Below, one piece after another: positions 9,295 to 18,683 of a stretch of DNA of 64,000 nucleotides. A program made the translations under genes and the position numbers. A model generated the notes under the pieces. It was not told where the DNA came from, did not search any database, and saw only the letters and a program-made list of their open reading frames with translations. This DNA is from a virus (Duplodnaviria > Caudoviricetes). Every line of letters starts with the position of its first letter. Position 1 is the first letter of the stretch. The DNA lies in the IMG/VR virus record IMGVR_UViG_3300035676_000001, one strand, 5' to 3'.

Positions 9295-9438
9295 TTTCAT
9301 GCACGCCACCAATTCTTTGGCTGGAAATTGGAAACCAGGCGGGAGAGAGTCCCATCCGCACCACTTACTTTTGAGAAAAGCAAGAAAACAATAGGGTCAT
9401 ATTTGACTCCACCACTTGATTTTAATAAACCAAGAAAA
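9295..9438 (-). ncRNA. cyanophage structured RNA, manA/wcaG-motif-like
   Basis: Three tandem TTT-[hairpin]-TGG units, GGTGCGGATGGG..CCCGCC core, CTGG/CCAG pseudoknot potential; upstream of gmd/fcl. Family assignment is from memory and needs Infernal. Confidence 0.6.
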
Positions 9439-17137: not shown

Positions 17138-17212
17138 AAAAGATTTGTGTTTTGTACTAAACGACAATGTAAAGATTTCCTACAGAAGAGAAAACCTTCG
17201 TATATAGGGGAA

Positions 17213-17313
17213 CTTAACCGAATCTTAAGAAACTATTAAGTTGGGAGTATCATAGCACAACAGTATCGGTTGTGTCAATTAAGATACGGTTAAGACTTTT
17301 TACGGATAGTTAA
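17213..17313 (-). promoter_or_regulatory. porin promoter with Pho-box-like TTAA repeats
   Basis: TTGACA (17273-17278)-18 nt-TATGAT (17249-17254); TTAA at 17310, 17290 and 17279 upstream, and at 17236, 17225 and 17214 (11-bp period) downstream. Confidence 0.6.
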
Positions 17314-17316
17314 GAA

Positions 17317-17388
17317 AGCGGCTGACCCGATTCGAACGGGCGACATCCAACTTGGAAGGATGGCGTTCTACCACTGAACTACAACCGC
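17317..17388 (-). tRNA. tRNA-Gly(UCC)
   Basis: GCGGTTG acceptor; CTTCCAA anticodon loop. Confidence 0.9.
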
Positions 17389-17390
17389 AA

Positions 17391-17459
17391 TGTGGAGGAT
17401 TTACCCAGCCTCAGAGTTTCCTCTTCATAGGCACGGAACCTCCGGCACTTCCTTCACAC
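17391..17459 (-). ncRNA. candidate small structured RNA preceding tRNA-Gly
   Basis: Closing stem TGTG.AGGA/TCCT.CACA, GAAA-capped AGAG/CTCT hairpin; own TTGACA-17-TATACT promoter (17466-17494). Confidence 0.5.
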
Positions 17460-17495
17460 AAGAGAAGTATAGGACATAATGAGTATTATGTCAAG

Positions 17496-17568
17496 AGCCC
17501 CCGACAAGATTCGAACTTGCGACAAATGGTTTACAAAACCATTGCTCTACCAACTGAGCTACAAGGGC
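17496..17568 (-). tRNA. tRNA-Thr(UGU)
   Basis: GCCCTTG acceptor; ATGGT-TTTGTAA-ACCAT. Confidence 0.92.
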
Positions 17569-17570
17569 AA

Positions 17571-17642
17571 CTGGGGTGACTGGATTCGAACCAGTAACCT
17601 GCGAGTTAACAGCTCGACGCACTGCCGTTGTGCTACACCCCA
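17571..17642 (-). tRNA. tRNA-Asn(GUU)
   Basis: TGGGGTG/CACCCCA acceptor; CTGTTAA loop. Confidence 0.9.
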
Positions 17643-17679
17643 TTGTTTATTCAGTTAAACTTGGAGAATAAATCTCCAA

Positions 17680-17753
<74 letters not shown>

Positions 17754-17755
17754 AT

Positions 17756-17823
17756 AAGTAGGTTCCTATCGCCGCCACTCCTGAACCTACCGAAGGGGAG
17801 TACCGCAGTTGATTTCTCAACTC
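17756..17823 (-). ncRNA. candidate pseudoknotted small RNA preceding tRNA-Arg
   Basis: AGTTGA-GAAA-TCAACT hairpin; ACTCC/GGAGT and GTAGGTTC/GAACCTAC interlocked stems; TTGACG-17-TATAAT promoter (17828-17856). Confidence 0.55.
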
Positions 17824-17858
17824 TGATATTATACCAGTCCTTGAGAAAGTCGTCAAGG

Positions 17859-17940
17859 TGGGCAGGGAGGGATTTGAACCCCCGTAGGCAGAGCCAGTGG
17901 ATTTACAGTCCACCTCCATTAACCACTCGGACACCTACCC
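17859..17940 (-). tRNA. tRNA-Tyr(GUA)
   Basis: GGGTAGG acceptor; GTGGA-CTGTAAA-TCCAC; variable arm; TTGACG-17-TACAAT promoter (17950-17978). Confidence 0.92.
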
Positions 17941-17999
17941 GACTTCTTTATTGTATCATTCTTTAGGGTAGTCGTCAACTAAAGAGATGCAGATTAAAC

Positions 18000-18683
18000 T
18001 TAACCATTGGAAACTATAGAAATTCCATCTAATGATTGTTCAGTTTTAAAAAGTTCAATAATATTACTATCGATAACATTTGGATCTACATACCAATCTT
18101 CAAAAGCGTGACCACAATTAAGAACATTTTTAGCAATTGATTCATATCCATAATCTCTAAAAATTTTTCTAGATTCCTCTACACATTCTGAAGAGGATCT
18201 ATAAGCATCAGTCTCATATGTAATCACAGAAAATCTGTAAGTATCTAATGGAAGATTTTTAAGGCAAGCAAGTGTTTGTTCTGCAGGATCAATGTCAAGT
18301 TGAAGATAATCAATCTGAGTTGAGAAATTATTTTCCTCAAAAATTTTACTATAATCTGCAGTAATTGCATTTGCACATATGCAATTATTTTTTCTAACTG
18401 AATTATAATGATTTACTTTCTCTGATTCAATTTCGAAAGAAACACCTTTCCAATCATATTCTGACTCTAAAAGATAGGTGTTATTAATCACAATTGGATC
18501 GTCTCCTCCAATTTCAATATAAGTTCCATTCTTCTTCCCATTCAGCATACTCAAAACAAACATATCCTGAAATGCTTGTGAGTAATTATTTTTAATGAGA
18601 TTTATATTTTTAAATTTATATTTTAAACTATTTGCATTTTCGGCAAAATATCTATGGCAATCATAGTCGGAAAAACTAGACAT
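18000..18683 (-). CDS. FkbM-like SAM-dependent methyltransferase
   Basis: YSQAFQDMFVL..NGTYIEIG..NNTYLLE..W.GVSFE and IDYLQLDID. Confidence 0.75.
   Translation of the reverse strand: MSSFSDYDCHRYFAENANSLKYKFKNINLIKNNYSQAFQDMFVLSMLNGKKNGTYIEIGGDDPIVINNTYLLESEYDWKGVSFEIESEKVNHYNSVRKNNCICANAITADYSKIFEENNFSTQIDYLQLDIDPAEQTLACLKNLPLDTYRFSVITYETDAYRSSSECVEESRKIFRDYGYESIAKNVLNCGHAFEDWYVDPNVIDSNIIELFKTEQSLDGISIVSNG

Follow-up and report, generated by a model that had tools for sequence, protein, structure and literature searches.

Does the gap between the tRNA-Tyr (17857-17940) and tRNA-Arg(UCU) (17680-17753) genes on the minus strand of a viral DNA encode an RNA in its own right, and if so, of what kind and to what end? 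The stretch that was analyzed (64,000 nucleotides, hereafter the window) has ten minus-strand tRNA genes and one wcaG RNA, and on these grounds we take it to come from a cyanophage; its nearest database relatives are distant Synechococcus phages only. Marine cyanophages shape global primary production, and to our knowledge few of their non-coding RNAs have been recognized (CfrI, manA, wcaG, PhotoRC-II, and glutamine riboswitches).

A preliminary description of the window had placed in this gap an unnamed pseudoknot RNA with its own promoter, and the coordinates that it gave for the promoter, a hairpin, and two stems are all correct on the minus strand. Read from 17856 to 17754, this strand comprises a sigma-70 promoter, the hairpin P0, a GCGG linker, an H-type pseudoknot, and the sequence UUAU, after which tRNA-Arg(UCU) begins (Table 1). 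The TTGACG-17-TATAAT promoter is near-consensus (11 of 12 positions) and is separated by five bases from P0, the promoter-proximal 6-bp GAAA hairpin, which begins ∼35 nt from tRNA-Tyr. Stem S1, described as ACTCC/GGAGT, is found in the RNA as ACUCC (17801-17797) paired with GGAGU (17781-17777) and is lengthened to 6 bp by a U-G pair (17802/17776), whereas the 8-bp stem S2 stands as proposed, the last G of loop 1 being able to lengthen it through a G-U pair. The two stems, whose mutual exclusion would have spoken against the structure, interlock in a classical H-type pseudoknot, a single A (17782) standing between them, and the element does end, as described, 4 nt before tRNA-Arg.

Table 1. Features of the promoter-hairpin-pseudoknot module in the window, in the order in which they follow one another on the minus strand
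Feature	Position	Strand	Remark
-35 hexamer, TTGACG	17851-17856	-	directly after the 3' end of tRNA-Tyr
-35/-10 spacer	17 nt	-	between TTGACG and TATAAT
-10 hexamer, TATAAT	17828-17833	-	extended -10, with TG at -15/-14 (TGgTATAAT)
P0, 6-bp hairpin AGUUGA/UCAACU with GAAA tetraloop	17807-17822	-	predicted 5' end of the transcript
Linker GCGG, P0 to S1	17803-17806	-	GCG invariant among the matches listed (two alignments and a column tally)
S1 5' strand, UACUCC	17797-17802	-	pairs with 17776-17781
Loop 1, CCUUCG	17791-17796	-	CCUU invariant in all copies among the matches listed
S2 5' strand, GUAGGUUC	17783-17790	-	pairs with 17758-17765; 8 bp
Single A, S2 5' strand to S1 3' strand	17782	-	invariant among the matches listed
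S1 3' strand, GGAGUG	17776-17781	-	pairs with 17797-17802
Loop 3, GCGGCGAUAG	17766-17775	-	nearly invariant among the matches listed
S2 3' strand, GAACCUAC	17758-17765	-	pairs with 17783-17790
Spacer UUAU	17754-17757	-	4 nt, from S2 to G+1 of tRNA-Arg at 17753
tRNA-Arg(UCU)	17680-17753	-	71.7 bits; co-transcribed; first of an Arg-Asn-Thr run

The tRNA-Tyr gene has a promoter of its own (TTGACG-17-TACAAT, 17950-17978, minus strand) that ends ∼9 nt before the tRNA, and the tRNA run is thus split into short promoter-driven units: Tyr; pseudoknot-Arg-Asn-Thr; and leader-Gly. Ahead of tRNA-Gly lies a second sigma-70-like promoter (TTGACA-17-TATACT, 17494-17466, minus strand) followed by a leader of ∼77 nt (whole region, 17389-17494); the leader has a multi-stem fold (-23.6 kcal/mol, z -1.9) and finds matches among isolates only in S-SRM01, and there only for its promoter-proximal half. 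Directly after tRNA-Arg and before tRNA-Asn is a 7-bp hairpin (UUGGAGA-UUUAU-UCUCCAA, 17661-17679, minus strand) of a weak terminator-like or processing kind. The wcaG RNA of the window (RF01761, 99 bits) is found at 9295-9392 on the minus strand; in phage S-SKS1, a wcaG RNA (L001:2144-2241) lies ∼560 nt downstream of the pseudoknot RNA.

Because the element is a pseudoknot, which a nested-fold program cannot score, its single-sequence folding is unremarkable (z -0.45, no better than shuffles), and the evidence for the structure comes instead from comparison with other copies. These were collected by two pattern scans of IMG/VR, the first with the 3' half of the motif fixed and the second with the 5' half fixed; each scan had at least 120 matches, and those listed were used. 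In an alignment of 108 distinct copies among these matches, in which the 15 proposed pairs were tested, 99.7% of the stem cells hold standard pairs, and 10 of the 15 pairs show changes on both sides; compensatory changes are present in four of the six S1 pairs and in six of the nine S2 pairs, including a register-preserving shorter form. The covariation score of the proposed pairs is 0.50, compared with a mean of 0.21 after column shuffling (none of 500 shuffles reached 0.50) and with 0.04-0.13 when the partners are slid against each other. When all columns of the matches listed were scanned for mutual information with average-product correction, the S1 and S2 pairs ranked at the top, and no pairing beyond these two stems was suggested. 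An extra helix that would lengthen S1 (CUGC/GCGG) was considered and dropped, its CU belonging to P0 and its columns being invariant. G-U pairs are frequent in the stems, which means that the constraint acts on the RNA of the minus strand only. Loop 1 and S2 occur in a long and a short form, with the pairing register unchanged. The hairpin and pseudoknot are a real, strongly conserved small RNA.

The unpaired nucleotides are conserved as well. Among the matches listed, invariant nucleotides fill more than half of the 52 core positions, which together with the covariation of both stems gives the element a conserved aptamer-like core; the invariant loops are CCUU, the single A, and GCGGC-N-AUAG, position 6 of loop 3 being G or U and position 8 being U, rarely C or A. 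Two stretches that are invariant in the matches listed lay outside the retrieval pattern in each scan, CUGCG and CCUU in the first and UUC and AUAGGAA in the second, with rare exceptions among these matches, namely U to C or A in loop 3 and a single C-G pair of S2 changed to U-G. The distance between the S2 5' strand and the S1 3' strand is one nucleotide, at the position of A17782, in all of the 116 aligned copies from the matches listed.

The promoter belongs to the module, too. Of 124 unique upstream sequences from the matches listed, 114 have a hairpin directly adjoining the GCGG linker; this P0 hairpin varies in sequence and length, and its loop is GAAA or GAGA in 43 copies, a hint of a tertiary contact of the GNRA type. 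A -10 hexamer is present in 109 of the 124 sequences, and in 107 of these its end is 5-7 nt from the base at which P0 begins to pair; a -35 box with at least five of six matches accompanies it in 89 of the 109; 101 promoters match at least 9 of the 12 consensus positions, so that the promoter noted in the window is a property kept in about 100 of the 124 copies among the matches listed. Judging from the position of the -10 box 5-7 nt ahead of P0, the RNA probably begins at P0. Where the element follows close behind an ORF, the 3' end of that ORF contains both the promoter and a longer P0.

What follows the element varies. Among the matches listed, tRNA-Arg(UCU) stands behind 50 unique copies and tRNA-Pro(UGG) behind 19, and these are the only tRNAs found there; 45 unique copies precede ORFs, at a distance of ∼13-30 nt, and directly behind seven comes a second sigma-70 promoter for the next gene, as in S-SKS1, where the next gene's own promoter comes directly after S2. 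The preliminary description had the RNA fused to the 5' end of tRNA-Arg, and this holds in the window; it does not hold for the family, in which ∼40% of the copies among the matches listed have no tRNA behind them and precede an unrelated ORF or a second promoter instead. Where tRNA-Arg does follow, it is always the first gene of a variable tRNA cluster, and the spacer between the 8-bp S2 and the tRNA measures 2-5 nt while its sequence drifts (matches listed). This exclusive partnership with tRNA-Arg(UCU) or tRNA-Pro(UGG) at a spacing of 2-5 nt is new here, as is a contig with one copy per tRNA, described below.

The ORFs behind the element share no function: they encode DUF6561, the commonest, PurM, phosphomannomutase, tryptophan halogenase, a Phd-like antitoxin, a tail-tube-like protein, and a protein with a PHROG match labeled "ferredoxin." The ORF contexts are associated with flanks of low GC content (36%, Prochlorococcus-phage-like) and with loop 3 in its GCGGCUAUAG variant; flanks of ∼41% GC accompany the tRNA contexts, so the context in part tracks lineage. 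DUF6561 (PF20198; phrog_431/483) is a small protein family and the commonest ORF behind the RNA in low-GC, Prochlorococcus-phage-like contigs (L033:112-423, L026:4313-4576, and ∼13 others). At the element itself we saw no terminator, no alternative pairing, and no pairing that would sequester a ribosome-binding site, and no consistent terminator was identified downstream.

The module is present in at least 130 IMG/VR viral contigs and in about a dozen isolated cyanophages; BLAST-positive phages are S-SKS1, P-SSM2, P-SSM5, ACG-2014f, S-SCSM2R, SynMITS9220M01, S-SM2, Bellamy, S-B43, S-B05, RB11-B, and S-H68. Copies were counted with a covariance model, R1, built for the element. R1 finds one copy in the 64-kb window (77 bits, next match 10.7), one each in S-SKS1, P-SSM2, ACG-2014f, and S-SCSM2R, and one each in five large IMG/VR genomes, including that of S-SM2 (that is, nine whole or near-whole phage genomes with one copy apiece), and one copy in 99 of 100 loci totaling 745 kb, in which no twilight zone of scores separates 65 bits from noise. 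The remaining locus (L071, IMGVR_UViG_3300030708_001718) is the only two-copy contig seen among the loci examined: its copies, at 562-611 and 1736-1785 (∼1.1 kb apart), differ by compensatory changes, and one precedes the tRNA-Arg(UCU) that heads a tRNA run while the other precedes tRNA-Pro(UGG). R1 finds no copy in five reference cyanomyoviruses (Syn9, S-PM2, P-SSM4, S-RSM4, and S-SSM7). A general leader reused many times per genome was therefore ruled out, the covariance-model searches giving one copy.

In cellular genomes (185,579, one per prokaryotic species), the search yielded nothing beyond seven partial matches due to chance and one fragment of 832 bp, and a host origin was ruled out on this basis. 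The fragment, a contig of an Acidimicrobiales metagenome-assembled genome (JAURJB010000094.1), holds a full copy (L135:416-467, 78 bits) and is very probably phage DNA mis-binned with this actinobacterium. Since the RNA is carried both by Kyanoviridae and by the siphovirus S-SKS1 (genus Llyrvirus), which stands outside that family, the module has moved between phage lineages, promoter included. It is a phage-specific accessory and a mobile RNA gene, usually present once per genome.

Is the RNA already known under another name? The preliminary description called it unnamed, and a covariance scan (cmscan) of 17200-18100 with Rfam 15 gave neither a match on the element nor a ribozyme even at E ≤ 10; in seven other loci with the element, no family match at E ≤ 1 overlaps it. 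The sole overlap is a 15-bit YrlA match that is driven by the tRNA. The Rfam families without a match include preQ1, SAM-II/V, fluoride, guanidine-III, glnA, Downstream-peptide, manA, wcaG, and PhotoRC, and a known Rfam family was ruled out by the gathering-threshold and E ≤ 10 scans of the window together with the E ≤ 1 scan of the seven loci. We found no description of the element in Weinberg 2010, in Sullivan 2010, in the papers on the genomes of S-SCSM1 and S-CREM1, or in the text of Fremin 2023, whose lists give 10,006 unnamed IMG/VR candidates. The element constitutes a new RNA family; its general kind, the small structured phage RNA in a tRNA or accessory-gene region, is a known one.

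The closest parallels in setting are manA (RF01745) and wcaG (RF01761), which occur in the same phages and accessory-gene regions and are likewise orphan motifs with strong covariation (Weinberg et al., 2010; PMC2864571); manA can also lie inside a tRNA cluster, and its gene associations resemble those of the pseudoknot RNA (PMC2864571). Unlike the element, manA is a 192-nt multi-stem RNA and wcaG measures 98 nt, neither model matches the element, and anchoring to a promoter is a feature of the element. Identity with manA was considered for the neighborhood of purM, phosphomannomutase, and hsp20 downstream and was rejected, manA being a separate 192-nt RNA in these loci. In ACG-2014f (KJ019093, L003:1591-1949), a manA RNA (RF01745, 90 bits) begins 1-2 nt after tRNA-Arg and ends 1-2 nt before the next tRNA; this copy would be cut out by the tRNA-processing enzymes and not act as a 5' UTR, which is at odds with how manA is usually read, as a cis-regulator.

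Phage T4 has small RNA genes in a comparable place. In T4 (AF158101, L170:1909-2248), rnaD and rnaC come directly after tRNA-Arg, the gaps measuring 1 and 6 nt, and rnaC and rnaD are stable RNAs (species 1 and 2). Like the element, they lie beside tRNA-Arg in a T4-type tRNA cluster, and both kinds are presumably cut out by tRNA-processing enzymes; the T4 RNAs, however, lie downstream of tRNA-Arg, measure 119-139 nt, and end in a tRNA-like arm, whereas the element lies upstream, has its own promoter, and consists of a hairpin and a pseudoknot. Homology was rejected, as R1 finds nothing at rnaC/rnaD (the best T4 match, 12 bits, is in the tRNA-Leu gene). Thus tRNA-Arg adjoins orphan stable RNAs in T4 and in cyanophages, the RNAs themselves being unrelated.

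What, then, does the RNA do? We tentatively favor, from the sequence comparisons, a self-contained small RNA of ∼70 nt that would be released by RNase P and act through its invariant loops. The steps that we infer would run as follows. A strong host-type (sigma-70) early promoter would start transcription at the first base of P0, and after the GCGG linker the RNA would fold into its compact H-type pseudoknot. Cleavage by RNase P at position +1 of tRNA-Arg would then release an RNA of ∼70 nt with the triphosphate-bearing hairpin P0 at its 5' end and, at its 3' end, the pseudoknot followed by a tail of 2-5 nt (4 nt in the window). 3' exonucleases cannot load on very short tails, and a tail of this length would be too short for them, so that the RNA would be long-lived. 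The invariant CCUU of loop 1 would run parallel to the invariant GAA of S2 and form C+.G-C and U.A-U major-groove triples; judging from the geometry, such a triplex could form with the UUC/GAA end of S2, next to the junction. Major-groove triples of this kind are found in luteoviral, telomerase, and SAM-II pseudoknots. The released RNA would act in its own right, with a protein or a small ligand bound by the loops CCUU, A, and GCGGCGAUAG.

Similar maturation logic, in which a tRNA cut sets the end of a neighboring RNA, is known elsewhere. E. coli 3'ETS-leuZ is a functional RNA derived from a tRNA spacer, and the 3' end of MALAT1 is made by an RNase P cut at a tRNA-like structure (mascRNA) and protected by a triple helix, so that MALAT1, like the RNA proposed here, has a compact structure right at the RNA end. 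3'ETS-leuZ is a bacterial 3' spacer and MALAT1 a eukaryotic long non-coding RNA, whereas the element is a candidate 5' external spacer. The comparison with T4 rnaC/rnaD, the absence from the five reference cyanomyoviruses, and the model of RNase P release with triplex end protection are new here.

That the RNA itself is the likely product is suggested by its single copy per genome, its own promoter, and its indifference to the downstream gene, as well as by the second promoters that bypass it, the lack of an expression platform, and its sporadic distribution across lineages. Release by RNase P is compatible with a tRNA spacer that keeps to 2-5 nt even as its sequence drifts, and the roles first put forward for the element (trans-acting RNA, nuclease-resistant RNA, or protein decoy) are all compatible with such a product. 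Against release, the ∼40% of copies without a tRNA would need another 3' end or would stay as a 5' UTR, and RNase P might be impeded by a pseudoknot so close (2-5 nt) to where it cuts; the exclusive association with tRNA-Arg(UCU) and tRNA-Pro(UGG), together with the two-copy contig, could reflect a cis role in tRNA maturation. A further-reaching version, which we regard as doubtful, is that the element represents a new class of phage small RNA that hijacks tRNA processing to obtain an RNase P-made, triplex-capped 3' end, a counterpart in bacterial viruses of how the MALAT1/mascRNA end is formed, and that, once matured into a long-lived RNA, engages a host protein during takeover (for instance a ribonuclease, translation factor, or defense factor), either as its decoy or as its cofactor.

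Of the readings that compete with a released small RNA, a leader acting in cis survives best, and we consider it possible, if somewhat unlikely, that the element alters RNA polymerase or gates both the RNase P processing of tRNA-Arg and tRNA-Pro and the translation of ORFs. Leaders that modify polymerase (by processive antitermination or anti-pausing) include HK022 put, Bacillus EAR, and rrn leader elements. The element always opens its transcription unit and shares the strand of whatever comes next, at close range (2-5 nt to tRNAs, 13-30 nt to start codons); only two kinds of tRNA follow it, tRNA-Arg always first in its cluster (matches listed), the two copies on L071 are allotted one per tRNA, and the hairpin at 17661-17679 lies behind tRNA-Arg in the window. 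A leader of this sort is hard to reconcile, however, with one copy per genome in phages that have many early units, with downstream genes of the S-SKS1 type whose own promoter bypasses the element, and with S-PM2, S-RSM4, and Syn9, in which tRNA-Arg is expressed without it, nor was a consistent downstream terminator identified.

We consider it improbable that the module is the H-type pseudoknot aptamer of a ligand-sensing riboswitch, even though it looks like one. The aptamers of preQ1-I/II, SAM-II, SAM-V, guanidine-III, and fluoride are of similar size, with two interlocked stems and strongly conserved loops, and a major-groove triplex between loop 1 and stem 2 may be common to them and the element; more than half of the 52 core positions, loops included, are invariant in the matches listed, the GNRA-capped accessory hairpin and the possible loop-stem triplex recall small pseudoknot aptamers, and the same accessory-gene regions hold the orphan riboswitch candidates manA and wcaG. 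The element differs from all of these aptamers in having no sequence or model match to them (no Rfam riboswitch matches it), no terminator or platform seen that would sequester a ribosome-binding site, start codons too far from S2, and downstream genes without a common function, a tRNA being the most frequent neighbor. For the window, this agrees with the view taken at the outset that a translational riboswitch is unlikely.

We likewise think it very unlikely that the module is purely a protective, cap-like structure at the 5' end that wards off the 5'-end-dependent RNase E or RNase J in the manner of an exonuclease-resistant RNA: a hairpin at +1 with a compact pseudoknot right behind it, at the 5' end of the unit, would suit this purpose, but simple protection has no need of invariant loops, a general protective role goes poorly with one copy per genome, and the tRNAs behind the element are stable anyway.

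The end of loop 3 (...GGCGAUAG before the last stem) loosely recalls what we take to be the J4/2 junction of HDV-like ribozymes. Theta ribozymes share with the element an outer P1/P2-like topology and a place beside phage tRNAs as small pseudoknotted RNAs; theirs is the full minimal HDV fold with a catalytic C in J4/2, and they are cleaved at the tRNA, within ∼5 nt of its end by the position criterion (PMC10879173). The element, by contrast, lies 5' of the tRNA and, as the preliminary description had noted of P3 and P4, lacks P3/L3, P1.1, and P4, and an HDV-like or theta ribozyme was ruled out on topology, there being no room for P3. A new class of small self-cleaving ribozyme that aids tRNA precursor processing, to which the invariant unpaired nucleotides of a pseudoknotted core adjoining a tRNA might point, is scarcely credible with the single nucleotide between the S2 5' and S1 3' strands leaving no room for P3/L3 and P1.1, no Rfam ribozyme match, and many copies without a tRNA behind them.

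The pseudoknot RNA is widespread, with at least 130 viral contigs and about a dozen isolates that include P-SSM2, S-SM2, ACG-2014f, Bellamy, and S-SKS1; its covariation support equals that of curated Rfam families and it has a promoter of its own, which together make it an experimentally tractable orphan RNA, and it merits a family entry. If the element does act in cis, it would represent a new control of tRNA supply or of early transcription in a host without Rho. If a stable RNA is made through RNase P, as we tentatively propose, it would be the first example of a "5' external spacer" RNA with a function from a phage tRNA operon.
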